In this document: one piece after another, positions 29,761-61,944 of the stretch
Numbering within the stretch: the first letter of the stretch is position 1
Layout of the letters: each line of letters starts with the position of its first letter
Origin: a virus
Taxonomy: Duplodnaviria > Heunggongvirae > Uroviricota > Caudoviricetes
Reading direction: 5' to 3' (one strand)
Length of the DNA stretch: 64,000 nucleotides
IMG/VR virus record: IMGVR_UViG_3300031920_000341
Coordinates: 144,267-208,266 of that record
The notes under the pieces: generated by a model
Told to the model about the DNA's origin: nothing
Databases searched by the model: none
What the model saw: the letters and a program-made list of their open reading frames with translations, nothing else
Made by a program: the position numbers and the translations under genes

Positions 29761-29787
29761 CTTTTAAATTAATAAAAATTTATAATA

Positions 29788-30159
29788 ATGGAAAACATTT
29801 TTAGCGATGAGTTTAAAACTCTATTTACGCCATTTTTTAATCAATTATATGAAACACTACCACTCGCACGTGTTACATTTGAAAAAGAAGATGAGCATGG
29901 TATTATTGAATTTATATTACCTGGTTTTGAAAAAGACAATTTTTCTTTAACTTTACAAAATAACAGGAAATTAATTGTTGAATACAATAAACCAAATGAT
30001 TCTGAAAACGAATGGGATTTTTCATTCAAGAAAGTATATTCAATTAGTTTTGATATAGATTCTAAGAATGTTCGTGTTGGATTTGTTAATGGAATATTTT
30101 CTATTGAATTTAATGGTATTGATGCAGATATTATATCAGTAGACTTACCAATGGGTTAA
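29788..30159 (+). CDS. hypothetical protein
   Basis: Preceded by promoter-like element 29725-29760 and followed by bidirectional terminator 30164-30190. Confidence 0.4.
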   Translation: MENIFSDEFKTLFTPFFNQLYETLPLARVTFEKEDEHGIIEFILPGFEKDNFSLTLQNNRKLIVEYNKPNDSENEWDFSFKKVYSISFDIDSKNVRVGFVNGIFSIEFNGIDADIISVDLPMG

Positions 30160-30163
30160 AATA

Positions 30164-30190
30164 AAAAGAGGGACACATGTCCCTCTTTTC
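30164..30190. terminator. bidirectional intrinsic terminator between convergent genes
   Basis: AAAAAGAGGGAC-ACATG-GTCCCTCTTTTC: palindromic stem flanked by an A-run and a T-run, between plus-strand gene (ends 30159) and minus-strand gene (ends 30208). Confidence 0.7.
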
Positions 30191-30207
30191 TTACATTACT
30201 ATGATTA

Positions 30208-30567
30208 TTATAAAAGTGCACCAAATGTAGACTTGCCATTTATTATAGCATTTATAACTACAGCATACTTATGTTCTCCGTCTTTAATTTTATTAACGGC
30301 ATAATCAATTGCATAATTACGAGCTAATTCACAATATGTATTAGTTTGATCAACAAGAGCATTTGTGTATACCTTTGGTTCAAATCCATATGAAAATAAC
30401 TGTTCGGTTAATGACATACCAAAATTATATGAGCCCAATACTTCACCTGTACTAGTTAATAGTACCATACTCATTTGATATATTAGCGCTTCGATTTCAT
30501 TACTAATACTTAATATATCATCAGAATAATTTGGATCAGTTTCTGGTCTAATAAAAAATTCTTGCAT
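30208..30567 (-). CDS. hypothetical protein
   Basis: 119 aa, first gene (3'-most) of a minus-strand three-gene cassette. Confidence 0.4.
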   Translation of the reverse strand: MQEFFIRPETDPNYSDDILSISNEIEALIYQMSMVLLTSTGEVLGSYNFGMSLTEQLFSYGFEPKVYTNALVDQTNTYCELARNYAIDYAVNKIKDGEHKYAVVINAIINGKSTFGALL

Positions 30568-30580
30568 TGTTGTTTATATT

Positions 30581-31363
30581 TTAATCCTCATTGTCAAAAT
30601 CAAATTTAGGTATATCACCCTTTTTAGCAGAAGCAATCGCTGCTCTTTCCATGTCGGCATCACTTTTAACTAATTCTTTTTCTTCAGCTGCTGCATGTTT
30701 ATTTGCTGCTTTCCTTTCTTCTTTTTCTGTACTAAAAATATCATCTTTTTTAGCAGTATTACGTTTTTCAGCAGTAGTAGGAACTACATCTATATCAAAC
30801 CATAAAAGATATGGGCCTAATGGTTGATAAGGTTCAGCAAGTTCTTTCTTTTCAACTTTATCCCGAGCAATACTTTTATTTAAAACATCTCTATCTGATT
30901 TAGCAATAATATTAGGTTCTGGTAACATTGATTCATGATCAAGTTCCTTTTCAAATTCTTCATCGCTTTCGGGACGTTTATCAACAAATGTTAAACTTAT
31001 ATCCCAATCTGATATTTTTTCTATGAATTGTTCAACAGGATCATTAGTTAATGGTTCATGAAAACTAAGTTCATAATCAGCTATGTTATTTGTTTTAACA
31101 TATACTGTTGATGGAATACCAGTTTCTGGTTCAAATGTATGTTGTTTAACATTATATAATACTCCAGTATCATTACGACCTTTCAACATTCCATATATTT
31201 CATGTTTTATTTGTGCAACATCTTTTTCTGTAAAAAGTGGCGTTGAATCTTCAGTATCATCAATTTGAATTTCTTCTTCATTTAATTTAACTCTAAATTC
31301 ACCAAACGTATAAGGTTTATTATTTTCATTAAGAAAATCAATTTTATTAAGAAACTTATTCAT
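30581..31363 (-). CDS. hypothetical acidic protein with Lys/Glu-rich C-terminus
   Basis: 260 aa, minus strand, tightly spaced with neighbours. Confidence 0.4.
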   Translation of the reverse strand: MNKFLNKIDFLNENNKPYTFGEFRVKLNEEEIQIDDTEDSTPLFTEKDVAQIKHEIYGMLKGRNDTGVLYNVKQHTFEPETGIPSTVYVKTNNIADYELSFHEPLTNDPVEQFIEKISDWDISLTFVDKRPESDEEFEKELDHESMLPEPNIIAKSDRDVLNKSIARDKVEKKELAEPYQPLGPYLLWFDIDVVPTTAEKRNTAKKDDIFSTEKEERKAANKHAAAEEKELVKSDADMERAAIASAKKGDIPKFDFDNED

Positions 31364-31412
31364 AGTAAATGTATGTTTTTTTTATTTATTTTAATTTTTA
31401 GTATTAGAAACA

Positions 31413-32147
31413 TTACCAACGTTCTAGGAACATAAAGTCTGGTGTATTTTCTCCAACAAACATTTCTTCAACTTTAGCCATTTCTGTTTCGGCTTTTGTC
31501 ATCATTCTATCATATCTTAGCTTAACGCCACCCGGTAATTCAAATTCAAATGCTTCAAGCATTTCATTAAGTCTTAACTTAGCCTTTGCTCTAACATACC
31601 TTTGATATAGTTCATCATTATATAATGCTTCTGGTTCAATTGTTTTATATGTATCTATAACAACATTAACAAGAGGAGTCCTACCTTTGATTGCAAGAAG
31701 TCTTGTATTTTTATTATAATCAAATGCCATAGTATCAAGAACTAAATTCTTAGTTAAATCAAGAAATGAAAAAACAGCCGTTCTATACATTATACTCTCA
31801 CCCATAAATGGAGTAAGGAATATTTCTGATCCGACAAATTTTTGTTCTGAGAAGTCACGGTCAATTGTAGCAAATACCGAACCACCTTTTATTTCTTTAC
31901 ATTCAGTAACCATACGAATACAATCAGGTAGTTGAATTTGCCTGTGCTTTCTAAAATATTCGGTTCTAAACATTTCAAGTGGAAGCACCATATATTTGGG
32001 TTCAACAGAATGTCTCCAATTATCATAAAAAAATTCACGGGCAATTGTTAGGATACGTCCTATTTCTTTTTCATTAAGACTAAAGGGTAATGCGCCAGAA
32101 AAAGTAAGCTCATCATTTATATCTTTTATTAATTCTTGTTCGACCAT
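31413..32147 (-). CDS. hypothetical protein
   Basis: 244 aa, minus strand; divergent from the plus-strand genes starting at 32240. Confidence 0.4.
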   Translation of the reverse strand: MVEQELIKDINDELTFSGALPFSLNEKEIGRILTIAREFFYDNWRHSVEPKYMVLPLEMFRTEYFRKHRQIQLPDCIRMVTECKEIKGGSVFATIDRDFSEQKFVGSEIFLTPFMGESIMYRTAVFSFLDLTKNLVLDTMAFDYNKNTRLLAIKGRTPLVNVVIDTYKTIEPEALYNDELYQRYVRAKAKLRLNEMLEAFEFELPGGVKLRYDRMMTKAETEMAKVEEMFVGENTPDFMFLERW

Positions 32148-32239
32148 TGAAACAAATCTTTTTATTATTTATTCCTAATAAGTATCTGATATATGAAACT
32201 AATATTAAGTTTTTGATATAATTTAAAAAAATAATCATT

Positions 32240-32653
32240 ATGAATAGAGAAGACTGGAATAAAGCACATAAAGTATGTCCAAAATGTAATAATACAAAAA
32301 TAGCACAAACACTTGCTGGTCCTATAGAAATGGATGGAGTATATTTTGATGATATAAATAAAGCATGGTGTAATGAATGTGGTTGGAGAGGTATGGCAAT
32401 GGATTTAAAGCCAGATCCAAGCGAATCTAAAGAAATGAAAACAGCACAGACCGAACAACCAGTTAGAACCATAGAAGATGAAAAAGTTATATATGCTGCT
32501 ATACCTGATGTCATAGAAACTTTTACTACAATACAAAAAGCGGTTACTTCCGCATTACCACATGAATCTACAATAAAATATACTGATGAAATTTTTATGC
32601 AAATAAAGAAAACGTTAGCAAAAATAGAATCAACTCACCGTAACCAATCATAA
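32240..32653 (+). CDS. hypothetical zinc-ribbon protein
   Basis: CPKCNN...CNECG. Confidence 0.4.
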   Translation: MNREDWNKAHKVCPKCNNTKIAQTLAGPIEMDGVYFDDINKAWCNECGWRGMAMDLKPDPSESKEMKTAQTEQPVRTIEDEKVIYAAIPDVIETFTTIQKAVTSALPHESTIKYTDEIFMQIKKTLAKIESTHRNQS

Positions 32654-32655
32654 TA

Positions 32656-32691
32656 TACTTTTCTGTTTCATTTAAATTGCGTTAATTTGCT
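32656..32691 (+). promoter_or_regulatory. bipartite promoter-like element, copy 3 (TACTTTTCTGTTTCA-N11-TTAATTTGCT)
   Basis: Same element upstream of ATG 32699. Confidence 0.5.
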
Positions 32692-32698
32692 TTTAATT

Positions 32699-32905
32699 AT
32701 GGAAAAAGGAATCCAATATATTAGCAGCCAACGTGGATATGATAAGAACATTAAAGTTAATGTGAAACATATTACAAATGATAAGATTGCCGTAGAATTT
32801 TTATCGGTAACTTCGTTTTGTTGGATAGGTTGGTATAAGTGGTATTTTAGAAATGAATTTGATAATGTATTTGAAACAACTATAGGTACAATTCCAGATA
32901 AATAA
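32699..32905 (+). CDS. hypothetical small protein
   Basis: First ATG after promoter-like element 32656-32691 (the ORF track's TTG start at 32687 lies inside the element). Confidence 0.35.
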   Translation: MEKGIQYISSQRGYDKNIKVNVKHITNDKIAVEFLSVTSFCWIGWYKWYFRNEFDNVFETTIGTIPDK

Positions 32906-32921
32906 TAATAAATGAATTGTA

Positions 32922-33140
32922 ATGAGTAAAGATGATCAAAGTTGGAAACAAAGGAGAACAGAATTTTGTGCACATTTTGTGAACAAAAAGGATACTGATA
33001 TGCATATGTTAATAGTTCCCAGTTCAGCAAATTTAGATTGTTATCACGTTATTATTGAATTTAAAGATGATGATAGTAATATGGAATTTAATTACATGTG
33101 CGGAAATGAAATTGAGAAAAATTATGGTATTTTATTATAA
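32922..33140 (+). CDS. hypothetical small protein
   Basis: 72 aa. Confidence 0.35.
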   Translation: MSKDDQSWKQRRTEFCAHFVNKKDTDMHMLIVPSSANLDCYHVIIEFKDDDSNMEFNYMCGNEIEKNYGILL

Positions 33141-33176
33141 TACTTTTCTGTTTCGAAATAAAAACATATATTTGCA
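33141..33176 (+). promoter_or_regulatory. bipartite promoter-like element, copy 4 (TACTTTTCTGTTTCG-N11-TATATTTGCA)
   Basis: Same element, directly abutting ATG 33177. Confidence 0.5.
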
Positions 33177-33746
33177 ATGACAAATAGAATAAAAGATTTA
33201 CGTTCTTTAAATGAAGAAGTAGAAGTACAGGATACACAAGAATCTGCTCCAGTTGAAGGTGGTTCATTAGTAACAGAAATTATTAATGCTAATCCAGCAG
33301 AAGGATATACTTTATCATCAACTGATGATGGATTAAGTGTTCAAACTTCAACAGGATATACATTTACAATGTCAAATGGCGTACTTGATTTTTATAAACA
33401 ACTCTTTGATGATGGAGCAGAACATGTCAATAGCTACAATAGACATCTTGAAACAGTTGAAACTGCATTATCTACAAATGATTTAAAAGAAGTTGCTCGT
33501 TTATATAAAGTAATTGCAAAATCGTTAGCACCAATTGAAATTAAACCTGATTTATATGCTATACCTGCAATACTCTTAAGAGATGAATCAATTCAGTTTG
33601 AAGAATATAACAAACTTTTTAATGCTTATGCAAAAGAAAATTATGATTTGGATGAAGCAACATCAAGTAAGTTATCAGCAGCAGTTAATAATGGAATTGG
33701 TTACTATAAATTTATCCTACTTCTTTTTGAACATTTAGATAAGTAA
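33177..33746 (+). CDS. hypothetical protein
   Basis: 189 aa; ATG directly abuts promoter-like element 33141-33176. Confidence 0.4.
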   Translation: MTNRIKDLRSLNEEVEVQDTQESAPVEGGSLVTEIINANPAEGYTLSSTDDGLSVQTSTGYTFTMSNGVLDFYKQLFDDGAEHVNSYNRHLETVETALSTNDLKEVARLYKVIAKSLAPIEIKPDLYAIPAILLRDESIQFEEYNKLFNAYAKENYDLDEATSSKLSAAVNNGIGYYKFILLLFEHLDK

Positions 33747-33798
33747 AACTAAAAATTAATATTCAATATAATATAAACTATAATTTAAAACTATTATT

Positions 33799-33996
33799 AT
33801 GATTATAATTAAAATTTTATCATTATTATTTATTGTGTTTGCCTCATATATGATACTTGACTGGATTATACCAGCACTTATCGGTAGACAACCATTTGCT
33901 TTAATGCGTTATGTTTTTAAAGGAAAAGATATTGATGAAGAAATTAAAGACTTTGAATCCCAACAAATGAATAATCAACCTAAAAAAGAAAATTAG
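33799..33996 (+). CDS. small membrane protein
   Basis: IIIKILSLLFIVFASYMILDWIIPALIG hydrophobic N-terminus. Confidence 0.35.
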   Translation: MIIIKILSLLFIVFASYMILDWIIPALIGRQPFALMRYVFKGKDIDEEIKDFESQQMNNQPKKEN

Positions 33997-34051
33997 GTAT
34001 TATTATATCAATTAAATTATTTCAATTAATGTTTAACTAAAATTTTTAACA

Positions 34052-35281
34052 ATGAACAATCCAAATTTAAGCAGAACTAAAAAAAGTTCTGGAATGCTTT
34101 TTGCCATTATCGGGGTGGTATTTTTAATCTTCGGTGCGATTGCCCTAAACATGTCTATGGTAAACGTAGACGCAGATGAAATTGTAGTAACACAGGATCC
34201 ATATGATGGAGAACTACATTTCTATTTCTCACCAGGCCTTCAATTTACAAGGTTCGGCCAGGTAACACGATATACGAAAGAGAGTCCCTATTGGTTTTCT
34301 TCACAAGAAGATCAAGGTACAGATGCAGATCAATCAATTCGTATTAGATTCTCAGATGGTGGACATGCTAAAATATCCGGTTCTTTTAGGTGGAAATTAC
34401 CACTTGGTGAAGAAGCAATGCGTAATGTGCATACATTATATGGAAGTCAATTTAACGTAGAACAAGAATTAATTCGACCAGTTATTGAAAAAGCGGTATA
34501 TATGACTGGCCCGTTGATGTCTTCTAAAGAATCATATTCCGAAAAACGTAATGACCTATTATCTTATATAGAAGATCAAACAACAAATGGTGTATACAAA
34601 ACTAAAACAGAAGAAAAACGTGGAATTGATATTTTATCCGGTACTGAAAAAACATTTACCATTGTAACTATTAATGAAGATAAAGATGGAAATCAATTAA
34701 GGCAAGAGGTATCACCCTTTAAAACCTTTAATATTACATCTTATAACTATTCCATTAATACAATTACATATGATGCAACCGTTGAAACACAAATTAAGAC
34801 TCAACAGGAAGCCATGATGGCAGTTCAGACATCTATTGCAGAAGCAAAGAAAGCGGAACAGAATGCAATTAAAGTTGAAAAAGAAGGCCAAGCTAATGCA
34901 GCAAAGGCCAAGTGGGCACAAGAGGAGCTTAACTATAAAGAAATTGCTCTTGCTGAAAAAGATGTTATCGTAAGTGAAAATAAGATGAAATCTGCCGAAT
35001 TTTTCAAGAAAGAACAGATTCTTATAGGTGAAGGTGAAGCTGCACGTAAACGACTTGTAATGCAAGCTGATGGTGCTTTAGAAAAGAAACTTAAAACTTA
35101 TGAAAGAGTTATGGGACAGGCATTCAAAGCAATGGCAGAATATAGAGGAAACTGGGTACCTACTACAGTTATCGGTGCTGATGGTTCCGGTGGTGGATAT
35201 AATGGTGCACAAACTATGATTGATGCATTATCAGTAAAAACATTAAATGATCTTGCACTCGACATGAGAGTTAAAAAATAA
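34052..35281 (+). CDS. SPFH/band-7 (prohibitin/HflKC-like) domain membrane protein
   Basis: N-terminal TM anchor, central band-7-like region, Ala/Lys/Glu/Gln-rich coiled-coil tail (QQEAMMAVQTSIAEAKKAEQNAIKVEKEGQANAAKAKWAQEE); terminator 35321-35351. Confidence 0.55.
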   Translation: MNNPNLSRTKKSSGMLFAIIGVVFLIFGAIALNMSMVNVDADEIVVTQDPYDGELHFYFSPGLQFTRFGQVTRYTKESPYWFSSQEDQGTDADQSIRIRFSDGGHAKISGSFRWKLPLGEEAMRNVHTLYGSQFNVEQELIRPVIEKAVYMTGPLMSSKESYSEKRNDLLSYIEDQTTNGVYKTKTEEKRGIDILSGTEKTFTIVTINEDKDGNQLRQEVSPFKTFNITSYNYSINTITYDATVETQIKTQQEAMMAVQTSIAEAKKAEQNAIKVEKEGQANAAKAKWAQEELNYKEIALAEKDVIVSENKMKSAEFFKKEQILIGEGEAARKRLVMQADGALEKKLKTYERVMGQAFKAMAEYRGNWVPTTVIGADGSGGGYNGAQTMIDALSVKTLNDLALDMRVKK

Positions 35282-35320
35282 ACAGCCAATTTACATTTTT
35301 TATTATTGTCAAAAAAGACC

Positions 35321-35351
35321 GGCGTAAACCGGTCTTTTTTAGTTTAAAAAT
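35321..35351 (+). terminator. intrinsic terminator
   Basis: AAAAAAGACCGG-CGTAAA-CCGGTCTTTTTT. Confidence 0.8.
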
Positions 35352-35400
35352 TAAAACTAATTCTTATTTTTTCATATAATATTAAACTTAAATTTATTAT

Positions 35401-36429
35401 ATGAATTCATTAGACAAGCAATATTTACAATCATTAGAAACAATTCTCAATACTGGTAATAAAAGAGGTGATAGAACAGGAACTGGTACAATAAGTATAT
35501 TTGATTATACAATAGATCATAATATACAAGAGGGTTTCCCATTACTTACAACTAAACGAGTTTGGTTTAAAGGTGTTTTACATGAATTGTTATGGTTTTT
35601 ATCTGGTGATATGAATATTAAATATCTTGTTAAGAATAATGTTAATATATGGAATGATTGGCCATATAAGAAGTATACTGAAAATGTAGCTAATCCATTA
35701 TCAATGGAAGAGTATGTTAAGAAAATTATTGAAGATGATGATTTTGCAAAACAATATGGTGATGTCGGTCGTATATATGGTGCACAGTGGTTAAATTGGA
35801 CGGATACGACAGAGCGTGTTAATGGAGATGAAACTATACGTAAGCGTATTGGATTAAATCAAATAGATAACTTGATACATACGCTTAAAACTAACCCAGA
35901 GGATAGACGAATGATTGTTACTGCATGGAACCCTGCTGAAATTAAAGAAGCTGCACTTCCAAGTTGTCATTATAATTTTCAATGTTATTCTGAAGAACTT
36001 ACCGATCAAGAACGTGTTAATATAATAAACGAAAGATTTAATAATAAATGTAAAGTTAATCCAGAAACATTGCAAGACTTAGAAGCTTTTGGTATTCCAA
36101 AACGTAAATTATCATTGAAATGGGCGGGTCGTTCAATTGATTCCTTTTTAGGTGGACCGTTTGATATAGCATCATATGGATTATTTTTAATAATGCTTGC
36201 ACAAGTAACAAATCATATTCCACATAGATTAATTAGTACATTTGGTGATTATCATATTTATATGAATCATATAAATCAAGTGAAACAGCAATTACAAAAT
36301 GAAGGGCATGATTTACCAATCGTAAAAATTAATCCTGATATAAAATCAATTTATGATTTTAAGTATAAAGATTTTGAATTAATTAATTATAAACATGATG
36401 GTACAATAAAAGCACCAATTAGTGTTTAA
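35401..36429 (+). CDS. thyA: thymidylate synthase
   Basis: RTGTGTISIFDYTIDHN...GFPLLTTKRVWFKGVLHELLWFLSGDMN and active-site ALPSCHYNFQCY. Carries insertions in the small domain, as in some Gram-positive/phage ThyA. Confidence 0.9.
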   Translation: MNSLDKQYLQSLETILNTGNKRGDRTGTGTISIFDYTIDHNIQEGFPLLTTKRVWFKGVLHELLWFLSGDMNIKYLVKNNVNIWNDWPYKKYTENVANPLSMEEYVKKIIEDDDFAKQYGDVGRIYGAQWLNWTDTTERVNGDETIRKRIGLNQIDNLIHTLKTNPEDRRMIVTAWNPAEIKEAALPSCHYNFQCYSEELTDQERVNIINERFNNKCKVNPETLQDLEAFGIPKRKLSLKWAGRSIDSFLGGPFDIASYGLFLIMLAQVTNHIPHRLISTFGDYHIYMNHINQVKQQLQNEGHDLPIVKINPDIKSIYDFKYKDFELINYKHDGTIKAPISV

Positions 36430-36522
36430 TCAATATATTTATAATTTTTAAATTTAATATTTGGTGATTTTATTCTATGTTGTATTGTTGTATAATATAA
36501 AAAGGACATATCTATTTAAGAA

Positions 36523-36795
36523 ATGATATCATACAGTAATAAAGAAATAGAGAAATACAAAAGAATTCCGAATCATGCATATGATACATATTCATTTGAT
36601 ATTGTATATACTCATGAAGATGGAACTAAAGAGATTTGTAAATGTGAATCAACAGAAGATGAAGATGGATTAAAAACATGGGAGTTAGGAATGTTTACAA
36701 CAAAAGCAGGTGAAGATATTTTAGCCGTATTTGGCGGAAGAATTATTAATAAACAAGTAAAAAAATTAAAGAAAAATGGCAAATACAAAAAGTAG
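36523..36795 (+). CDS. hypothetical protein
   Basis: 90 aa. Confidence 0.35.
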   Translation: MISYSNKEIEKYKRIPNHAYDTYSFDIVYTHEDGTKEICKCESTEDEDGLKTWELGMFTTKAGEDILAVFGGRIINKQVKKLKKNGKYKK

Positions 36796-36961
36796 TGGAA
36801 TAGGTTTTGCTGGATTATTAGCAATAGTATTTATAGTATTAAAATTAGTAGGCACTATTACATGGTCCTGGTGGTGGATATTAAGTCCAATTTGGATTCC
36901 TAGTATAATTGGATTATCAATTTTTATTCTTATACTAGTTATAGCAGGTTTATTAGATTAA
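36776..36961 (+). CDS. small membrane protein
   Basis: Two hydrophobic helices (GFAGLLAIVFIVLKLVG...SIFILILVIAGLL). Confidence 0.35.
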   Translation: MANTKSSGIGFAGLLAIVFIVLKLVGTITWSWWWILSPIWIPSIIGLSIFILILVIAGLLD

Positions 36962-36983
36962 TTTAATTTAAATTTAATAAAGC

Positions 36984-37415
36984 ATGAGTTATAATACATA
37001 TGATGAAAATCAAACAATACCTACACCATTACCTCCTCTTTCAGAAAGAGATAAGGAAATATATATTTTAAAGAATAAGATTAAGGTATACATAGCAAGT
37101 CCATATACAAATGGTGATGTTGCAGTGAACGTAAAAAATCAGATAGATATTACCGATCAGTTAATGGATCTTGGATTTATACCATTTACTCCATTATACA
37201 GTCATTTTCAGCATATGGCTCATCCAAGATCATATCAAGAGTGGATTGAATATGGTAAGGCATGGGTTGTTATGTGTGATGCGCTTTATCGAATTCCCAG
37301 TGAGCTTATAAGTATTGGTGCAGACGATGAAGTAGAACTTGCACATGATTATGATATTCCTGTATTTTATGATATTGATTATATGGTTAAATACTTTAAA
37401 AAAATGGATAAATAA
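36984..37415 (+). CDS. hypothetical protein (nucleoside 2-deoxyribosyltransferase-like fold suspected)
   Basis: KVYIASPYTNGD...AWVVMCDALYRIPSELISIGADDEVELAH; weak resemblance only. Confidence 0.3.
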   Translation: MSYNTYDENQTIPTPLPPLSERDKEIYILKNKIKVYIASPYTNGDVAVNVKNQIDITDQLMDLGFIPFTPLYSHFQHMAHPRSYQEWIEYGKAWVVMCDALYRIPSELISIGADDEVELAHDYDIPVFYDIDYMVKYFKKMDK

Positions 37416-37663
37416 TGGACATTAAACACATATCGGAAGAAGATTTTAAAGAAATTATTATTACTGTTGATGATGAATTATATCATATAGCAAATAGTAT
37501 ACATAAGCATATTCCTAAAATGAAATATGAAGTCAATGAATTTCCAATTATGTGTTCATCAGATGGACAGAAATTATTTATTTCTAAATCATTTCCACGT
37601 GAAGTCGGTGAGAAAGATACACATAGATTTAAAATAACTATTGAAAAAATACCTTATGAATAA
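37415..37663 (+). CDS. hypothetical protein
   Basis: 82 aa, TAATG-coupled. Confidence 0.35.
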   Translation: MDIKHISEEDFKEIIITVDDELYHIANSIHKHIPKMKYEVNEFPIMCSSDGQKLFISKSFPREVGEKDTHRFKITIEKIPYE

Positions 37664-38028
37664 TGGATATTAAACAAACAAGTAAAGAAATACATGAGAA
37701 TGCTATTGATAAAGGATTTTGGTCAGAAGGTCAAAATATAGGCGAGAAACTTATGTTAATTGTATCTGAACTTGGTGAAGCAATGGCAGCACATCGTAAA
37801 GATAAATTTGCTTTTACTAAATTTGATCTATCTGAAATAACAGATATAAAATTATTTATACAAATTTTTGAAAATACAATAAAAGATACATTTGAAGATG
37901 AACTTGCTGATGCTATTATAGTATTACTTGATTTAGCATATGCAATGGGTATTGATATAGAAAAGCATATAATTCTAAAGAACAAGTATAATAAAACAAG
38001 AGAACATTTACACAGTAAAAAATATTAA
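37663..38028 (+). CDS. mazG: MazG-like nucleoside triphosphate pyrophosphohydrolase
   Basis: EKLMLIVSELGEAMAAHRK and EDELADAIIVLLDLAYAMGIDIEKHIILKNKYNKTR match the MazG EExxE/D signatures. Confidence 0.8.
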   Translation: MDIKQTSKEIHENAIDKGFWSEGQNIGEKLMLIVSELGEAMAAHRKDKFAFTKFDLSEITDIKLFIQIFENTIKDTFEDELADAIIVLLDLAYAMGIDIEKHIILKNKYNKTREHLHSKKY

Positions 38029-38088
38029 TATAGCTAGTCTAAAAATTGGTGACTATTTTAAAGAAAAATACGAAAACCCAGACGTACA

Positions 38089-38277
38089 ATGAATACATAC
38101 ACATCAAAACCGTATGATATATATGGACAGTTCAAACATGGTGGAGAAACCTGGATCCTCATTGAGGTAGATGGATACATGTTAAAAGGAATTAGTATTA
38201 CGCCACTTGGAAAAATTCATAAATTACATATTCATAAATTACAGGTTTATGATTTAATATATTTAACCGAAGAATAA
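38089..38277 (+). CDS. hypothetical protein
   Basis: 62 aa. Confidence 0.3.
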   Translation: MNTYTSKPYDIYGQFKHGGETWILIEVDGYMLKGISITPLGKIHKLHIHKLQVYDLIYLTEE

Positions 38278-38283
38278 TTAATT

Positions 38284-38496
38284 ATGAAAATAATATCATA
38301 TAGTAGAGAAGATCTACTTAATTTTATAAGCATAGATTATATTTCTAGTATACCTTATTGGCATACTCAATCAGATTTAAACGAACTATTGAATAAAGTG
38401 GCTGATTCACAAAATTTAGATATTAGTAGATGTAGTAATCTTAAGATTATACATCCTAAGAACATGTCACCAAGGTTTCAATTTCAATATGAATAA
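38284..38496 (+). CDS. hypothetical protein
   Basis: 70 aa. Confidence 0.3.
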   Translation: MKIISYSREDLLNFISIDYISSIPYWHTQSDLNELLNKVADSQNLDISRCSNLKIIHPKNMSPRFQFQYE

Positions 38497-38661
38497 TAAA
38501 TTTTGAATATATAATTAAAATAATCCAGTTCAATGAGACGAACAAATATTTCTTTACGATTGCGCACTGCACGAATTCGTCCATTGGGATTAATTTTACG
38601 ATGTAGGTAATTCCCATACTTTTCCATTTCAATTTAATTTTGTATATTTGTAAAATAATTT

Positions 38662-38734
38662 GGGTTTGTCGTCCAATTGAATAGGATTCCAGATTACGGA
38701 TCTGGGGATACGGGTTTGAATCCTGTCAAGCTCA
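38662..38734 (+). tRNA. tRNA-Arg (anticodon ACG) with non-canonical D/T loops
   Basis: Manual fold: acceptor GGGTTTG/CAAGCTC (5 Watson-Crick + 2 GU), D stem GTCC/GGAT, anticodon stem CCAGA/TCTGG with loop TTACGGA, T stem ACGGG/CCTGT with loop TTTGAAT. D loop AATTGAATA has A19 and the T loop has U56 (covarying replacement of G19:C56). TATATTTGTA box lies 8 nt upstream. Confidence 0.45.
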
Positions 38735-38749
38735 CTAAAATAAAAGATT

Positions 38750-39484
38750 ATGCTGATAGTTAGTAAATTTCATGATTATTATGATTCATCAATGGGAGTT
38801 CATGGTATTGATAAAACAATTGTATATGAACGACATACTAAAATGAAACATTTTAATAAACATGGAGATACTGTTGATTGGGATAAAAAGAATTCGGTCT
38901 TTGACATATTTGAAGAAAAATATAAAGCAAATTTTGGCCAAAGATATAGACCAGGTATTTTATCATATGATGATAATCATAATGGTGAATATTTTATAGT
39001 TGGATTTTGTGGTTATACATATCTTGGATTTAGATATAAACCATATTTGAAAGATCCTATATATTATTATGGCGAAGATATTTTAAAGTTCTTTAATCGT
39101 TATAAAAAAAGAAGACTTCATAAGAATCCTTCAAAATCAGACTTAAATAATATAAGCATACAATTCAATAAAGTAAAGAATTGGATTAATCTTATTCATG
39201 GCGCAGAGGTTATTGAGCAGTTTAGAGAATATAATACGCCTATATTTATAGAAATGAAAAATGCTATTGAAATTAATCCTAAACTTTTAGATTGGAGGTT
39301 TGTTGATGTATTTTCAAGTTATGCTGCATTTCAGCTCATACAATCATTTATAAGCGGTGTGCTAGGTACAAACGAGAATAAAGTATTAGATGTTGATGAG
39401 AAGCATCGTATAGCTCAACATGGTATGGATAAATGGTCATTTAGGAATCCTGACCCGCCTAAACGTAAACAAAAGAAAAAATGA
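38750..39484 (+). CDS. hypothetical protein with basic C-terminus
   Basis: 244 aa, ends PPKRKQKKK. Confidence 0.35.
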   Translation: MLIVSKFHDYYDSSMGVHGIDKTIVYERHTKMKHFNKHGDTVDWDKKNSVFDIFEEKYKANFGQRYRPGILSYDDNHNGEYFIVGFCGYTYLGFRYKPYLKDPIYYYGEDILKFFNRYKKRRLHKNPSKSDLNNISIQFNKVKNWINLIHGAEVIEQFREYNTPIFIEMKNAIEINPKLLDWRFVDVFSSYAAFQLIQSFISGVLGTNENKVLDVDEKHRIAQHGMDKWSFRNPDPPKRKQKKK

Positions 39485-39572
39485 AAATATACGTAATGTG
39501 TTATTATCTTTTAACGTTTACCTATTATTGTGTTTACTTATTGTAGATATATAATATAAATATAACACTATA

Positions 39573-40214
39573 ATGGATATAAAAAATCGTTGGTCAAAAC
39601 AAAATTTAGAACAATTAGTAAATGAATGTTCAACATTAACTGAAGTTTTAAATAAAATGAATGTATCAAAAAGTTCATTTAAAAAATTAAAAATAAAATT
39701 AAATGAACATGAAATTGATTATTCTAAATTTTATATAAGTAAAACTAAATATGAAAAAAATAATTTAATTGTTGTTATTAAAACTTCATATTCATTACGT
39801 GAAGTTTTATATAAATTAAAAGTAAAACAAGTAGGTGGTAATTATAAAACATTAAAAAAATATATTGAATTATATAATATAAATATATCACATTTTACTG
39901 GACAAGGATATAATGTTGGAGATAAATTTAAACAATTTTCAAGTAATAAAATAGATTTAAATGATATTTTAATTAATAATTCAACTTATACAAATACAAC
40001 AAGATTAAAAAAGAGATTAATAAAAAAAGAACTGCTTAAAAATAAATGTTATGAATGTGGGATTGATCCAAAATGGAATAATAAAATTTTAGTTTTACAA
40101 TTAGATCATATTAATGGAATTAATAATGATAATAGATTAAAAAATCTAAGAATACTTTGTCCTAATTGTCATTCGCAAACTAAAACATTTTGTGGATCAA
40201 ATAATAAAAAATAA
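39573..40214 (+). CDS. HNH homing endonuclease
   Basis: CYECG...LQLDHINGINNDNRLKNLRILCPNCHS = HNH motif. Immediately upstream of tRNA-Leu. Confidence 0.75.
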   Translation: MDIKNRWSKQNLEQLVNECSTLTEVLNKMNVSKSSFKKLKIKLNEHEIDYSKFYISKTKYEKNNLIVVIKTSYSLREVLYKLKVKQVGGNYKTLKKYIELYNINISHFTGQGYNVGDKFKQFSSNKIDLNDILINNSTYTNTTRLKKRLIKKELLKNKCYECGIDPKWNNKILVLQLDHINGINNDNRLKNLRILCPNCHSQTKTFCGSNNKK

Positions 40215-40215
40215 T

Positions 40216-40299
40216 GCTTCAATGTCGGAATTGGTTATACGAGATGGACTTAAAATTCATTGTCCTTGTGGCGTGTGAGTTCGAATCTCACTTGGAGTA
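40216..40299 (+). tRNA. tRNA-Leu (anticodon TAA), type II
   Basis: Acceptor GCTTCAA/TTGGAGT (5 Watson-Crick + 2 GU), 3-bp D stem TCG/CGA with 12-nt loop containing GG, anticodon stem ATGGA/TTCAT with loop CTTAAAA, 14-nt variable arm, T arm GTGAG-TTCGAAT-CTCAC, discriminator A. Confidence 0.7.
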
Positions 40300-40306
40300 C
40301 TAAATT

Positions 40307-40339
40307 AGAGTGGGAGTTCGACTCTCCTCTGAGCTACAG
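40307..40339 (+). other. orphan tRNA 3'-half-like fragment (T arm + 3' acceptor strand)
   Basis: GGGAG-TTCGACT-CTCCT-CTGAGCT-A has a canonical T loop and a 7-nt 3' acceptor-like strand but no matching 5' half; lies 8 nt after tRNA-Leu. Confidence 0.4.
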
Positions 40340-40374
40340 CATTAGAATTAGTATTAACATTTAAAAAATAAAAA

Positions 40375-40740
40375 ATGAACATTAGAAATTTTAAAATTGG
40401 TGATTGTATTTACAGAACAGCTCCAGCAGATCAAGACGGAAGTTACATGAATGAAAAAATGATTTTTGTTGGGATTAAGAATGGTATTATTCATTTAATT
40501 AAAGGAGAAGAAGAAAGATATTCATTAGGTATTGGACGTTTAGTTGAGGTTGGAATTAAAAGAGGTTGGGATGAAAATTGGGAATTATGGGAAAGTACTG
40601 AAGAAATGTATGATACTGCAATTGAAGTATTAATGGAAAAAAGAAAACAAAAAACAAAACAACGTATTGCTGATATGAAAAAATCAATTGAAGTGAAAAC
40701 AAATAAATTAATTTCAGCAATTATAATTAAATTACGCTGA
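40375..40740 (+). CDS. hypothetical protein
   Basis: 121 aa between two tRNA genes. Confidence 0.35.
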   Translation: MNIRNFKIGDCIYRTAPADQDGSYMNEKMIFVGIKNGIIHLIKGEEERYSLGIGRLVEVGIKRGWDENWELWESTEEMYDTAIEVLMEKRKQKTKQRIADMKKSIEVKTNKLISAIIIKLR

Positions 40741-40750
40741 ATTAATATAA

Positions 40751-40824
40751 AGGCACGTAGCTCAGTCTGGTAGAGCAATTCTCTGATAAGGAATAGGTCG
40801 GCAGTTCGAATCTGCCCGTCCCTA
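40751..40824 (+). tRNA. tRNA-Ile (anticodon GAT)
   Basis: AGGCACG-TA-GCTC-AGTCTGGTA-GAGC-A-ATTCT-CTGATAA-GGAAT-AGGTC-GGCAG-TTCGAAT-CTGCC-CGTCCCT-A; one C:C mismatch in the acceptor stem. Confidence 0.7.
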
Positions 40825-41192
40825 CGTAGATTGCTGTAGTTTCACCTGTTATTGCACCAGGAAAGAAAAGGCAGTAAGGGATTTATAGAGATACCAAAGG
40901 TTATGCAAGCCACTCTTAGTAAGAAAGTAGTTCTAATCCCCTATAAGGGAGACAGCTTAAAAGCAGTGTTGCGAAAGTTATGTTAAGGCATAAATCACTG
41001 ATCTTGTTGAAACTATTACTTATGATTTAAAATAATATACATATATGTTTAGTAAATTAAAACTTAAAAATGTATTACATAGAACCTGAAGATCAAACAT
41101 CTATTTCTGCTTATATAATCTGGGAAGAATGTGAAAATTTTATAATAAGTGTTTATACAGTAGTGGATAAATAATAAAAATATCAATTTGTT

Positions 41193-42185
41193 ATGTTTAG
41201 TCCATCAAAATATACTTGGCGATTCTTTGATTCAGAAAAAAAAATGATGTTAGAACAACCATTAGGTTGGGAAAATCAAAATAGTAATCATGAGGGTGAT
41301 GCGCTTTGGCGTACTGGGTTATCATATATTGCATATAAGGAACAAGTATTAAAAGAAGGAATACTTGGTTGTTATCGTAAATTTACTCAGATTAATAAAG
41401 AAGGAAAGTATTGGTATCAATCAATGCGATGTACTGGACGATATCGTGAAGATGATGTTAGCAGAGATCAAAATATTATAGCATTAAGTTCTCTATACAT
41501 TAATGGCGATATGGATGAATTTAATGAAATAGTAAATCATCTACCGTATAGATTAAGTCGTAGATTTATAATGGGACCAGCTATGTGGCTATGGTTAAAG
41601 GTATTAACTACAGGAAATAAATTATATCTTGTATTATATTCTTTAATTACCATGATTGAACTTATTATATCTACTTTGATTACAAAATCGGTTAATGTTC
41701 TTCTTAAAACAACAAAGGAATATACAGAAGAAGAATTAACACATGTTAATAATTCAACTGGGTTTTGGCATAAGAGAGATGGTAAAGAATGGGTATGGTT
41801 GGTTGAAGACGGTGTATCTGATGGTAAGAAGATGTATGGCACATATATGAAAAAATTAGATGATAATAAATTTTTAAAATTATTGGATAAAATGAAGCAT
41901 CCAGCATATGCGCTTCATTTAACAGGATGGATAGTTTACTGTCTTCCAAATGGATTTTGGAAAAAATCATTAAATAAATTACTATGGTGGGCATCTGAGA
42001 AGAATAATCTTTTATTGAAGAAACTTGTTGGTAAAGATATATCGCAACAAGAAATTGATAATTATAATCCAAGCTATGGATTTAGATGGTCGATTAGATT
42101 TGATGGAACAGAATATATTGATTTATTACAAGGAGAAGATGCTATTTACAATGTAATTGATAAAGATATATTAATGGCTTTATAG
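41193..42185 (+). CDS. hypothetical protein
   Basis: 330 aa. Confidence 0.4.
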   Translation: MFSPSKYTWRFFDSEKKMMLEQPLGWENQNSNHEGDALWRTGLSYIAYKEQVLKEGILGCYRKFTQINKEGKYWYQSMRCTGRYREDDVSRDQNIIALSSLYINGDMDEFNEIVNHLPYRLSRRFIMGPAMWLWLKVLTTGNKLYLVLYSLITMIELIISTLITKSVNVLLKTTKEYTEEELTHVNNSTGFWHKRDGKEWVWLVEDGVSDGKKMYGTYMKKLDDNKFLKLLDKMKHPAYALHLTGWIVYCLPNGFWKKSLNKLLWWASEKNNLLLKKLVGKDISQQEIDNYNPSYGFRWSIRFDGTEYIDLLQGEDAIYNVIDKDILMAL

Positions 42186-55778: not shown

Positions 55779-56759
55779 ATGAAAAAAGTAAAGGCAATTG
55801 TATTATTCAGTGGAGGGCTGGATAGCATGCTCGTGGCAAAAATGTTATATGAGCAGAATATAGAAGTAATACTTTTATATATTGATAATGGTTTTGAATC
55901 TAATGATCGATCAGATGAATTTAAAATTTTTGCTAAAAGTATTAATTCTAAATTAATTATTGAAAATGTTATTGATGATTTCTGCAGTACTGTACTTATT
56001 AATCCAACAAAAGGATATGGCAAAGCCATGAATCCTTGTATTGATTGCCATGGATATATGATCAACATAGCAAGTAAGATAGCCGAGCAAGAAGGTGCTA
56101 GCTTTATTGCAACAGGTGAAGTTATCGGTCAACGTCCTATGTCTCAAACCAGAGATGCAATGTTAATGGTTGACAATTTATCAAATTCTAAAGTTCCTAT
56201 AGTTCGTCCGCTATCAGCAAAGATAATGGATGAAACTAAAGTAGAAACCGATGGTATAATAGATAGAGAAAAGTTTGAAGGCATAGCAGGAAGAACAAGA
56301 ACAAGACAAATTGAATTGGCTGAATCATTAGGATTAAATAATTATCCTAATCCAGCGGGTGGATGTTTACTTACAGAAGTTAAATTTGCTAATAAACTTT
56401 CAAATGCTTTAAAGGTAACAAAATACATAAATAGTGATGATATTACGGTTGTAAGACACGGTAGAATGTTTCAAGTTGGAAATGCTTTATTTGTGTTAGG
56501 AAGAAATAAAGAAGATAATGAAGCACTTAGGAAATTAAATAAGAATAAGTATTTGGTGATAGAACCACCAGTTGAGAGAGGTCCAGTTGCTGTAGTATCA
56601 GGTGAATTTGATTTAGATGAAGCATTAGTAATGGCTTCTATTATGTTAAGGTATTGTGATATTGATCAAAATATTGCACATCAAGTTAAGTTTACTGAAT
56701 TTATATTTGATGTATTACCAATGAGCGAAAAAGAAATTGAGGGTTATAAACTAACGTAA
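55779..56759 (+). CDS. PP-loop ATP pyrophosphatase, ThiI-like (putative sulfurtransferase / nucleic-acid-modification enzyme)
   Basis: PP-loop SGGLDS at the N-terminus; ATGEVIGQRPMSQTRDAMLMVDN...PIVRPL aligns with the ThiI GESLGQVASQT...IRPL block; PCIDCH cysteine pair. Confidence 0.55.
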   Translation: MKKVKAIVLFSGGLDSMLVAKMLYEQNIEVILLYIDNGFESNDRSDEFKIFAKSINSKLIIENVIDDFCSTVLINPTKGYGKAMNPCIDCHGYMINIASKIAEQEGASFIATGEVIGQRPMSQTRDAMLMVDNLSNSKVPIVRPLSAKIMDETKVETDGIIDREKFEGIAGRTRTRQIELAESLGLNNYPNPAGGCLLTEVKFANKLSNALKVTKYINSDDITVVRHGRMFQVGNALFVLGRNKEDNEALRKLNKNKYLVIEPPVERGPVAVVSGEFDLDEALVMASIMLRYCDIDQNIAHQVKFTEFIFDVLPMSEKEIEGYKLT

Positions 56760-57739: not shown

Positions 57740-58045
57740 ATGGAATTTTATAGATACGAATGGATAGGGTTAGAATCAGCAAGAGATTCACTTCCTATTA
57801 TTAAGTTAAAACTAAGGATATTTAAATTACTTAGAGAGACTGAAAAGGGTTATTGGATTGATTTGGAATATAAAGATAGATGGATTTCTAAAACTTCAAC
57901 AAAACGGTATGCTTACCCTACCAAAAAAGAAGCATTAAATAATTTTATAATAAGAACAAAACGTAGATTGCAGTTTGTTGAAGCTACAATACATGGTTGT
58001 AAACAATCACTACGTTTAGCAGATATTGAATTAAATAAAATTTAA
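57740..58045 (+). CDS. hypothetical protein
   Basis: 101 aa. Confidence 0.35.
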   Translation: MEFYRYEWIGLESARDSLPIIKLKLRIFKLLRETEKGYWIDLEYKDRWISKTSTKRYAYPTKKEALNNFIIRTKRRLQFVEATIHGCKQSLRLADIELNKI

Positions 58046-59946: not shown

Positions 59947-60023
59947 CGAGGTATTGGGGAGCCAGGCCACCCCGCTTGCTTTGGGAGCAAGAGAACTCGT
60001 AAGTTCGAATCTTACTACCTCGA
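59947..60023 (+). tRNA. tRNA-Pro (anticodon TGG)
   Basis: Perfect acceptor CGAGGTA/TACCTCG, D arm GGGG-(10 nt)-CCCC, anticodon stem CTTGC/GCAAG with loop TTTGGGA, 7-nt variable region, T arm GTAAG-TTCGAAT-CTTAC. Confidence 0.7.
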
Positions 60024-60064
60024 CTTAATAATTAAAACGATCTTTGACGTCTTGAAAGAAAAAC

Positions 60065-60136
60065 GCCGGTGTAGCTCAGTGGTCGAGCGGAACGCTGTTA
60101 ACGTTAGGGTCGGGAGTTCGAATCTCTCCACCGGCG
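60065..60136 (+). tRNA. tRNA-Asn (anticodon GTT)
   Basis: Perfect acceptor GCCGGTG/CACCGGC, D arm GCTC-AGTGGTC-GAGC, anticodon loop CTGTTAA, T arm GGGAG-TTCGAAT-CTCTC. Confidence 0.8.
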
Positions 60137-60151
60137 CAATACAATTTAAAT

Positions 60152-60234
60152 GCCTCCTTGGCTCAGTGGTCGACAGCGCCTGCCTTGTAAGCAGGATTCT
60201 TAGGAACGCGTAGGTTCGAATCCTACAGGAGGCT
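60152..60234 (+). tRNA. type-II (long variable arm) tRNA with anticodon TGT (nominally Thr; Ser-like body)
   Basis: Perfect acceptor GCCTCCT/AGGAGGC, Ser-like D arm GCT-CAGTGGTCGAC-AGC, perfect anticodon stem CCTGC/GCAGG with loop CTTGTAA, 14-nt variable arm ATTCTTAGGAACGC, T arm GTAGG-TTCGAAT-CCTAC, discriminator U. Confidence 0.6.
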
Positions 60235-60442
60235 CACAAACCTTTAGTGTAGATTGATCGTCTTGCTATTGGGGCAATCTTTAGGGGTAGGAGACAACAG
60301 TATTGAATTCAGTTACTGAACGTATGGATTTCTGGTAAAACAAGAATGACAAAATTATGGACAGTACCGAGATTCACTTGATTTGGGAAGGAATCAGTAC
60401 AGTGTAAGTTTAAGGCTTACGTAGATTGCCAGCGCTAAAAAT

Positions 60443-60561
60443 GAAGGGGTAGCATTAGCTGGTTATGTTCAGGGACGTCTGATCACCCGGCTGGAAAGCA
60501 ACGCGAGTAGTACGCTTGCGCTTCTACGGAAGTGATGTTGGTTCGAGTCCGGCTCCCTTCA
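60443..60561 (+). ncRNA. 119-nt tRNA-like RNA with expanded central domain
   Basis: Acceptor GAAGGGG/TCCCTTC (extendable to 8 bp), D arm GCAT-TAGCTGGTT-ATGT, canonical T arm GTTGG-TTCGAGT-CCGGC. Between D and T arms lie ~67 nt forming at least two extra hairpins (GCAACGCG-AGUAGUA-CGCUUGC and CUUC-UACG-GAAG tetraloop); no standard 7-nt anticodon loop. Packed 5 nt upstream of tRNA-Lys. Confidence 0.4.
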
Positions 60562-60566
60562 CAAAT

Positions 60567-60640
60567 AGGCCCGTAGCTCAGTTGGTCAGAGCACCTGACT
60601 TTTAATCAGGGCGTCGAGGATTCGAATTCCTCCGGGCCTA
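60567..60640 (+). tRNA. tRNA-Lys (anticodon TTT)
   Basis: Perfect acceptor AGGCCCG/CGGGCCT, D arm GCTC-AGTTGGTCA-GAGC, anticodon stem CCTGA/TCAGG with loop CTTTTAA, T arm GAGGA-TTCGAAT-TCCTC. Confidence 0.85.
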
Positions 60641-60713
60641 CATGTTTTTATTTGTAAATCAGGTTCGATTATATTTTATTCGGCATAATTTAGATATATA
60701 AAAATAAAAGCAT

Positions 60714-61571: not shown

Positions 61572-61908
61572 AATCGTTCATTGTGCCCAGTGGTTGGGAA
61601 CGGGGCTGTCACCCTCGTAAAATTAACGGATCGTAACCGTTATGGACGGCAACATCAACGAAGATAGAGCAGAGACTCTTGACCCATCGTTCTGACTGGA
61701 CGGTGGGAACAAGTACATGTCGTGTGTATGATTGTGATAAGTTGTTATTTTTGATAAATAATAAGGGTTAATATATTATACTTTAAATATAAAAATCTGG
61801 TTTAGGGTTTAATATATTGCTCATTAAATTGTAAGTCGGTACCTGGCGTGCGTTGTTGCCGTCGACCTTCCGTTGTAGTTCATAGTCCTTCCCAGCAACG
61901 GGAGGTGG

Positions 61909-61944
61909 TACTTTTCGGTTTCATTTATAAATTGTATATTTGTA
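61909..61944 (+). promoter_or_regulatory. bipartite promoter-like element, copy 8 (TACTTTTCGGTTTCA-N11-TATATTTGTA)
   Basis: Upstream of micro-ORF 61972, at the 3' edge of a GC-rich structured island. Confidence 0.55.

Follow-up and report, generated by a model that had tools for sequence, protein, structure and literature searches.

What kind of RNA would be made from a gene that keeps the acceptor and T-arm half of a transfer RNA (tRNA) and has its decoding half rebuilt? The question is raised by a 119-nucleotide (nt) element on the plus strand of an uncultured phage genome, at positions 60443 to 60561 of the 64,000-nt stretch of DNA that we analyzed as a whole (the window; positions 144,267 to 208,266 of IMG/VR record IMGVR_UViG_3300031920_000341, a 208-kb contig). 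The balance of the evidence tips slightly toward the element being the gene for a tRNA-derived, non-decoding tRNA-like RNA, of the same kind as RNA1 and RNA2 of phage T5 and RNA C of phage T4, that is excised by the tRNA-processing machinery. A preliminary description had offered four readings, namely, an intron-like insertion, a tRNA-derived regulatory RNA, a processing decoy, and an unusual suppressor tRNA. These fared unevenly: the anatomy of the element, its genomic context, and the T5 and T4 precedents support a tRNA-derived RNA, while the suppressor failed and the intron is weak.

A tRNA frame around an expanded core

The outer parts of the element have the anatomy of a tRNA (RNA position p corresponds to window coordinate 60442 + p). 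The 5′ strand of the acceptor stem (GAAGGGG, G1 to G7; 60443 to 60449) pairs at seven of seven positions with the 3′ strand (UCCCUUC, U112 to C118; 60554 to 60560), giving six Watson-Crick pairs and a G7·U112 pair. The 3′ strand is followed by a discriminator A (60561) and a C (60562), CCA itself not being encoded, and the leader upstream of the element is A/U rich, with an inferred RNase P cleavage site immediately 5′ of 60443. U8, A9, and a D-arm-like segment, GCAU-UAGCUGGUU-AUGU, occupy 60450 to 60468; the D-loop sequence, AGCUGGUUA, holds the GG, and the segment forms a 4-bp D arm in the ARAGORN deletion variants described below. The T arm, GUUGG-UUCGAGU-CCGGC (RNA positions 95 to 111; 60537 to 60553), has 5 bp, two of them G·U, and a consensus loop (UUCRANY); it is evident in the sequence and in the T-arm columns of the Rfam tRNA model, and it is one of 10 GTTCRANTC sites in the window.

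Between these arms lie two further hairpins. The central one, GCAACGCG/CGCUUGC at RNA positions 56 to 77, occupies the anticodon-arm position (60498 to 60520), and ARAGORN variants and folding give it two registers: GCAA(C)GCG/CGCUUGC with the loop AGUAGUA, or (C)GCGAG(U)/(G)CUUGC(G) closing a loop of 5 or 7 nt (UAGUACG). Neither 7-nt loop has U33 and a purine at position 37, since AGUAGUA has G33 and U37 and UAGUACG has A33 and C37. The second hairpin, (G)CUUC-UACG-GAAG(U) at 60520 to 60533, was found in the sequence, by folding, and in the ARAGORN variants; its core (CUUC-UACG-GAAG) spans RNA positions 79 to 90, it is capped by a UNCG-type tetraloop, and it makes the RNA resemble a class II tRNA, i.e., one with a long variable arm. 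The acceptor stem, the D segment with its GG, the T arm, and both hairpins are thus present where the preliminary description had placed them. Its assertion that the RNA has no recognizable 7-nt anticodon loop needs correction, in that the central hairpin can form a 7-nt loop in either of its registers, albeit an off-consensus one.

The element has a predicted minimum free energy (MFE) of −45.8 kcal/mol (z = −2.27), and 5 of 200 shuffled sequences fold as well. Energy models concur on the acceptor stem, the T arm, the UACG hairpin, and a central hairpin. In the MFE, centroid, and acceptor- and T-arm-constrained folds, the D-arm position is taken by a 48-nt long arm (RNA positions 10 to 57; 60452 to 60499), in which the D-loop sequence at 13 to 20 pairs with 45 to 52 (window coordinates 60487 to 60494) in an 8-bp helix. 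The base of this arm is formed by G10-C57 and C11-G56 and its tip by the hairpin UCAGG-GACG-UCUGA (60469 to 60482), and it holds the palindromes GACGUC and UGAUCA. Constrained folding gave −45.3 kcal/mol for this extended arm, −34.4 kcal/mol for a canonical D arm, and −27.5 kcal/mol for a split anticodon stem. The D arm of real tRNAs depends on tertiary contacts that energy models ignore. The GG-bearing segment of the D arm reported in the preliminary description is present in the sequence, but the MFE fold does not keep that arm and pairs the D-loop sequence elsewhere.

The element also sits where a tRNA gene would be expected. According to ARAGORN, the window holds ten tRNAs grouped in two clusters, and Rfam backs nine of them. 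The second cluster runs tRNA-Pro(UGG), tRNA-Asn(GUU), and tRNA-Thr(UGU) (together at 59947 to 60235, plus strand; ARAGORN and Rfam), a 207-nt spacer, the element, 5 nt, tRNA-Lys(UUU) (60567 to 60641, plus strand; ARAGORN, 72 bits in Rfam), and an open reading frame (ORF) resembling an HNH-type homing endonuclease. The 5-nt gap to tRNA-Lys noted previously was borne out (CAAAU, 60562 to 60566). The tRNA-to-tRNA gap that holds the element measures 330 nt, and the element is on the same strand as the flanking tRNAs. Its G+C content is 54.6%, compared with 29.8% for the window and 55 to 62% for the neighboring tRNAs. A further shared trait is the C after the discriminator, which is present in 9 of 9 window tRNAs and in the element, the remainder of CCA not being encoded (positions 38735, 40300, 40825, 42248, 44584, 60024, 60137, 60235, 60562, and 60641); this C is a 3′-end signature common to the window tRNAs and the element.

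We scanned the window for frames of 95 to 160 nt in which a 5-bp T stem with a UUCRANY loop is followed by a strand completing seven of seven acceptor pairs. A single frame was recovered, exactly 60443 to 60561. In first-order Markov controls of 64 kb, the mean was 0.087 frames, and 25 of 300 controls had at least one, so the frame alone is only modestly improbable. Given the frame together with the position and strand of the element within a tRNA gap, its G+C content, the C after its discriminator, and a fold better than those of 195 of 200 shuffles, we regard the element as a real RNA gene.

A gene in this position could also be a tRNA pseudogene in decay, which has gained insertions, no longer has its anticodon loop, and is still transcribed, and perhaps processed, without having a function. 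The off-consensus loop would fit such decay, as would the orphan status of the sequence, which has no detectable relative, and the presence of other degenerate tRNA-like remnants in the window (GTTCGACTC at 40316 to 40324 and a doubtful tRNA-Asp at 61575 to 61650). However, all predicted helices are intact, including those in the extra sequence, and the high G+C content extends over the whole 119 nt, whereas unconstrained sequence in a genome of this composition should drift toward A+T. The element has likewise kept its tRNA-type spacing and the C that follows the discriminator. We regard a pseudogene as quite unlikely.

Tests for an interrupted or suppressor tRNA

Neither ARAGORN at default settings nor Rfam at the gathering threshold (29 bits) called a tRNA on the element. 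With permissive settings, the Rfam tRNA model (RF00005) aligned only with the 3′ 73 nt (60489 to 60561; 14.9 bits, E = 2.4), so the covariance model check put forward in the preliminary description leaves the element below threshold. Among the other Rfam families, a weak YrlA alignment was the sole match.

Since a tRNA interrupted by an insertion should be restored by its removal, we deleted every contiguous segment of 5 to 55 nt and submitted the 3,876 variants to ARAGORN at rising stringency. At 100% of the default threshold 91 variants passed and at 103% six did, but none passed at 104%; by comparison, the window's own tRNAs reach 103 to 117%, and clear insertion-bearing phage tRNAs reach 116 to 122%. 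The anticodons of the passing variants disagree (Tyr GUA, Leu UAG, Thr AGU, Arg UCU, Ala, Ile, and Phe), and some variants have loops with just two anticodon bases. Removal of positions 31 to 60 yields a clean class II cloverleaf with the loop AGUAGUA and the anticodon UAG, whereas removal of 11 to 47 yields a 5-bp stem (GCGAG/CUUGC) and the loop UAGUACG with GUA at its center. With introns allowed and the threshold lowered to 90%, ARAGORN reads the intact element as tRNA-Thr(AGU) with a 32-nt intron.

These solutions bear on the possibility that the element is a class II tRNA gene (Tyr, Leu, or Ser like) interrupted by a 26- to 38-nt insertion, which is spliced out by an uncharacterized activity or tolerated as an additional arm, so that the product is a working tRNA. 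The two deletion cloverleaves and the intron-mode call speak for it. A discriminator A together with a long variable arm is compatible, under established identity rules, with tRNA-Leu or tRNA-Tyr, and the element has both. However, there is no unique excision, and in every deletion solution either the stem is mismatched or the loop has neither U33 nor a purine at position 37. The insertion is far below the size of a group I intron and matches no intron in Rfam, and Pfam scans of 17 window ORFs revealed no tRNA-splicing or RNA-ligase enzyme. The intron-like insertion of the preliminary description is hence weakly supported, by marginal and contradictory tRNAs at no more than 103% of threshold. 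A group I intron was rejected: the extra sequence amounts to just 30 to 45 nt, whereas such introns measure roughly 200 nt or more and contain a group I core. The preliminary description had called the element too short for a group I intron or a transfer-messenger RNA (tmRNA); Rfam gave no intron or tmRNA match, and an ARAGORN tmRNA search was negative.

Over-long tRNA genes that do behave as interrupted genes exist elsewhere, and they provide both an argument for an insertion and a standard against which to judge the element. We searched with a pattern consisting of GGGGTARY, 70 to 100 nt, GGTTCRANTCC, RRY, and seven pyrimidines. IMG/VR and metagenomes yielded 44 loci with 26 distinct sequences, of which 13 are true frames with seven of seven acceptor pairs; 596 Gb of bacterial and archaeal genomes yielded four matches and no true frame, three of the four being ordinary tRNA-Tyr genes that follow a chance GGGGTA. 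Judging from these numbers, over-long genes of tRNA shape seem to be frequent in contigs of phages and metagenomes and all but missing from cellular genomes. A single excision turns many of the phage and metagenome examples into top-scoring tRNAs. Removing 56 nt at position 28/29 from locus L142/L122 gives tRNA-Asn(GUU) at 122% (49 bits in Rfam for L122), and removing 45 to 59 nt after positions 28 to 30, in the anticodon stem, gives Asn at 122% (L137), Leu(CAG) at 120% (L136 and L146), and Gly at 116% (L139). Other insertions, of 32 to 52 nt, lie in the D loop and conceal tRNA-Ile(GAU) at 118% (L145) and tRNA-Lys at 112% (L143). The recurrent site and size suggest a specific, uncharacterized type of insertion or intron, in agreement with the oversized tRNAs with "enigmatic introns" of Lak megaphages (preprint, 10.1101/356790).

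Like these genes of 105 to 133 nt, whose insertions interrupt either the D loop or the 5′ strand of the anticodon stem, the element is over-long, has canonical acceptor and T arms, and belongs to a phage tRNA cluster. The Lak-type and IMG/VR genes, however, are rescued by one removal, reaching 116 to 122% with a canonical anticodon loop, whereas no variant of the element goes beyond 103% and a canonical loop is missing. Taken together with the inconsistent isotype test described below, this comparison makes an interrupted but working tRNA unlikely.

The over-long genes often occur two or three in a row, as clusters of genes of 104 to 139 nt in huge-phage and metagenome contigs: on the minus strand of L122/L142 (2289 to 2160, about 2070 to 1932, and 1849 to 1731) and in L134 (5604 to 5980), L146 (97 to 357), L148 (5558 to 5953), and L160 (5985 to 6572). 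A 131-nt gene in L155/L144 (Ga0256407_10043967 and Ga0310695_10006145) becomes a top-scoring CUA (amber suppressor) tRNA when 43 nt beside the anticodon are removed (120% for L155). In L121/L143 (5408 to 5692), part of a 165-kb viral contig, the tRNA cluster contains a tmRNA (135 bits in Rfam; tag ADNAALPLAA) accompanied by the tRNA-Lys-like gene with the D-loop insertion.

We also asked which tRNA the element most resembles. Like the class II bacterial tRNAs (Tyr, Leu, and Ser), it has a 7-bp acceptor stem, a discriminator A, the D-loop GG, a variable-arm hairpin, and a T arm, and a covariance model of the element aligns end to end with class II tRNAs when about 38 to 40 nt of the D region are skipped; the best such alignment was with a GUA tRNA in L134 (39.6 bits). 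It differs from them in its subthreshold Rfam tRNA score, in lacking U33 and R37, and in its 30 to 40 extra nt. Although tRNA-Tyr gave the top scores, these came mostly from pattern-preselected sequences, and the unbiased set of T5 tRNAs did not confirm them (Ser, 24.1 bits; Lys, 22.6; His, 21.8; Tyr, 18.2; Leu, 15.8). A tyrosine-tRNA origin was accordingly rejected, and because the tRNA-Tyr matches were preselected and the T5 order is inconsistent, we assign no isotype.

A last group of alternatives comprises a nonsense suppressor, a selenocysteine tRNA (tRNA-Sec), a miniature tmRNA, and an RNA resembling YrlA-type Y RNA. The tRNA-like frame with a long extra arm invites them, and the weak YrlA alignment (RF02553) overlaps the element and tRNA-Lys (60511 to 60618), but at 21.3 bits it falls far short of the gathering score of 69. 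None of CUA, UUA, and UCA occurs in a 7-nt loop of the element. The standard genetic code fits the genome, with 48 long ORFs covering 72% of the window and ending in TAA (43 cases), TGA (4), or TAG (1), so a suppressor is unlikely on this ground as well, and the unusual suppressor tRNA of the preliminary description did not withstand these tests. The Rfam tmRNA and tRNA-Sec models gave no match to the element at E values up to 10, in line with the negative ARAGORN tmRNA search, and pair 3:70 is A-U in the element, compared with G·U in tmRNA. We consider this group effectively refuted. Since the decoding half is replaced by G+C-rich hairpins, the product of the element should be unable to read a codon.

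Resemblance to the stable RNAs of phages T5 and T4

Non-decoding RNAs with tRNA-like ends have precedents. In the T5 record (NC_005859), RNA1, of 144 nt, and RNA2, of 125 nt, carry the annotation "tRNA-like stable RNA with unknown functions." Like the element, both belong to a phage tRNA region, adjoin tRNAs and genes for homing endonucleases (of the HNH type in T5), and are oversized (125 to 144 nt), and they fold into an acceptor stem and a consensus-type T arm around a hairpin-rich, expanded core. RNA1 additionally has a D arm like that of class II tRNAs, together with a long variable arm. The T5 RNAs differ in that their expansion is in the anticodon arm, whereas that predicted for the element engages the D region, and T5 differs from the source of the element in host and phage lineage. 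The same T5 region (28000 to 42000) lists six further RNAs, none of which was found in Rfam within the scans made here: RNAI, RNAIII, RNAIV, RNA2H, and the 719-nt RNAX, annotated as stable RNAs of unknown function, and RNA3 (73 nt), annotated as a putative tRNA-like RNA.

Phage T4 annotates rnaC (species 1 RNA, or RNA C; 139 nt) and rnaD (119 nt) beside tRNA-Arg. Both RNAs accumulate in infection, and reviews as well as an omics study from 2022 describe their roles as unknown (PMC3014915, PMC9697503). From seven Tevenvirinae sequences we built an rnaC alignment and covariance model (R1). The family has a consensus T arm followed directly by the 3′ strand of an acceptor-like helix that covaries (CGAUUCG/CGUUUCG in T4 and CGGUCCG/CGGACUG in phage TG1), a long arm where the D arm would be, and a hairpin of 10 bp, with compensatory changes in 22 of 44 pairs; in other genera, rnaC lies between tRNAs at a spacing of 5 to 7 nt. 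The element resembles rnaC in its tRNA-like spacing within a tRNA cluster, in its consensus T arm and acceptor-like 3′ strand, in the long arm that replaces the D arm, and in a second hairpin with a non-anticodon loop. In contrast to the element, most rnaC members have two U·U mismatches in the acceptor stem, and the family lacks the variable-type hairpin; the element, unlike rnaC, also retains a recognizable D-loop sequence. The other T4 RNA, rnaD, was rejected as a relative: it is likewise 119 nt long but lacks a T arm and shows no significant fold.

We also looked for closer relatives of the element. Exact and degenerate DNA patterns found no homologue in IMG/VR, JGI metagenomes, and GTDB genomes, collections from which the source contig is itself absent. 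Two "spliced" versions of the element matched nothing in phages or Escherichia coli genomes. Approaching through the neighboring genes, we found solely bacterial relatives of a ThiI-like gene, at 44% identity or less, homologues of the ORF at 57740 to 58045 only in unrelated contexts without tRNAs, and nothing by exact look-ups. An element covariance model gave no matches over 80 loci around relatives of the large terminase, and a single-sequence model found no homologue across 172 loci.

Several of our results weigh against a non-decoding RNA of the T5 and T4 kind. About 8% of random 64-kb windows contain a long tRNA frame by chance, the z-score of the element's fold is modest, and the secondary structure of the core is ambiguous between the extended arm and a canonical D arm. 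The element is an orphan, no relative having turned up in the collections searched; a blastn search of 50,697 phage records recovered its flanking tRNAs only. Model R1 produced no match covering the element (60443 to 60561) at E values up to 10 with filters off, and membership in the T4 rnaC family was rejected on this basis; the element model (R2) aligned with part of RNA1 at 6.1 bits (E = 4) in the T5 tRNA region and with nothing in RNA2. Moreover, the decoy function considered below is conjectural. Since the covariance models detect no homology to rnaC or to RNA1 and RNA2, the link between the element and these RNAs is, as far as sequence comparison can tell, one of architecture and context, with no demonstrable descent. 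The kind itself is already known, tRNA-like stable RNAs of T4 and T5 having been described since the 1970s, and the element is, on this reading, a new orphan example of it.

Genomic surroundings and possible function

The source phage is distant from catalogued ones. Its large terminase is 31 to 36% identical to those of the nearest catalogued phages, which are the huge phages Sphingomonas phage PAU, Tenacibaculum PTm1, and Lak phages, and the closest IMG/VR terminase fragment (74% identity) is on a 4-kb contig (3300013099_001854). The window is A+T rich, with C making up only about 13%, and nearly all of its genes are on the plus strand.

The 207-nt spacer between tRNA-Thr and the element (60236 to 60442, plus strand) is noncoding (no ORF of at least 50 amino acids) and has a G+C content of 38%, compared with a background of about 30%. 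Its MFE has a z-score of −2.14, and a long-range closing helix, GGCAAUCU/AGAUUGCC, is predicted. An Rfam scan of the spacer gave no matches, and kinship with other spacers carrying GTAGATTG was rejected. If the element is excised, the spacer would be released as a separate fragment, and it may be a second stable RNA; in this it can be likened to T4 rnaD, which is placed between tRNA-Arg and rnaC.

Two other tRNA-like traces occur in the window. The "tRNA-Asp" at 61575 to 61650 only just clears the ARAGORN threshold (at 103%), its T loop is odd, and Rfam does not support it; the 260 nt after 61650 are G+C richer and end in terminator-like hairpins (61887 to 61917), and 61575 to 61910 could be another degenerate tRNA-like or structured RNA. 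An isolated T-arm-like stretch, GGGAGTTCGACTCTCC (within 40301 to 40340), which includes the GTTCGACTC remnant, lies 16 nt past tRNA-Leu(UAA) and has no matching 5′ half; an HNH-like ORF ends just upstream. The stretch may be what is left of a tRNA 3′ half, possibly through the action of a homing endonuclease.

A motif of about 43 nt, ACTTTTCnGTTTCA...GTATATTTGTAT, occurs five times (38618, 44602, 58048, 59624, and 61910), at the borders of gene blocks and tRNA clusters, and looks like a phage-specific promoter or terminator-promoter junction. The ThiI-like gene used in the searches above (ORF 55779 to 56759) encodes a PP-loop ATPase with ThiI/MnmA-like and NFACT-R_2 RNA-binding domains, which resembles an enzyme of tRNA thiolation; genes for a NUDIX protein and a DHH phosphoesterase lie close by. 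The nearest relatives of the ThiI-like protein are bacterial, at about 40 to 46% identity, and many of those with a named source are labelled Campylobacterota, which hints at the host and at phage-directed tRNA modification.

How might the element be expressed? By analogy with established tRNA biology, it would be cotranscribed with the flanking tRNAs, cut by RNase P before G60443, and trimmed at its 3′ end, where the 5′ processing of tRNA-Lys would define the trailer; CCA addition would then give a stable RNA of about 119 to 122 nt. The enzymes of tRNA processing read the acceptor/T-arm minihelix. We infer these steps because the element retains the acceptor stem on its T arm, the discriminator, and the encoded C. 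In such an RNA, the decoding half would be replaced by the long arm, the central hairpin with its off-consensus loop, and the UACG-capped variable-type arm, all of them G+C rich.

As for function, the RNA might act as a tRNA mimic that occupies a tRNA-binding factor, such as a host tRNA-targeting defense nuclease or a modification or charging enzyme. Both tRNA-cutting defense systems and phage tRNAs acting against them have been documented, and Septu and retron-Eco7 cut the variable arm of tRNA-Tyr (PMC13096335, PMC11555353, PMC10264068). Because such defenses and counter-tRNAs are known, a decoy is the most attractive guess.

A broader proposal would make the element one of a wider, uncharacterized class of expanded tRNA-shaped RNAs in large phages, ranging from RNAs with a working anticodon arm plus an inserted hairpin to RNAs that have lost decoding. 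Their extra arms would be functional, each RNA being a CCA-tagged, possibly aminoacylated mimic that titrates or resists host tRNA-targeting nucleases, whose candidate targets are the variable arm or the anticodon loop, or that recruits a phage factor. This proposal would give T4 RNA C and T5 RNA1 and RNA2 a function, but we think it improbable.

If the element is instead a non-decoding tRNA-like RNA gene of the T5 and T4 kind, a design in which the acceptor/T-arm half is intact and the decoding half rebuilt recurs in an unrelated, uncultured phage lineage. Genes of such design are missed by standard tRNA finders. The tRNA-like stable RNAs of T4 and T5 were found some fifty years ago and still have no assigned function, a puzzle that a single orphan copy from an uncultured phage does not by itself make testable. 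Should it prove true that such RNAs mimic tRNA against tRNA-cleaving defenses, they would represent a general counter-defense tool of phages.

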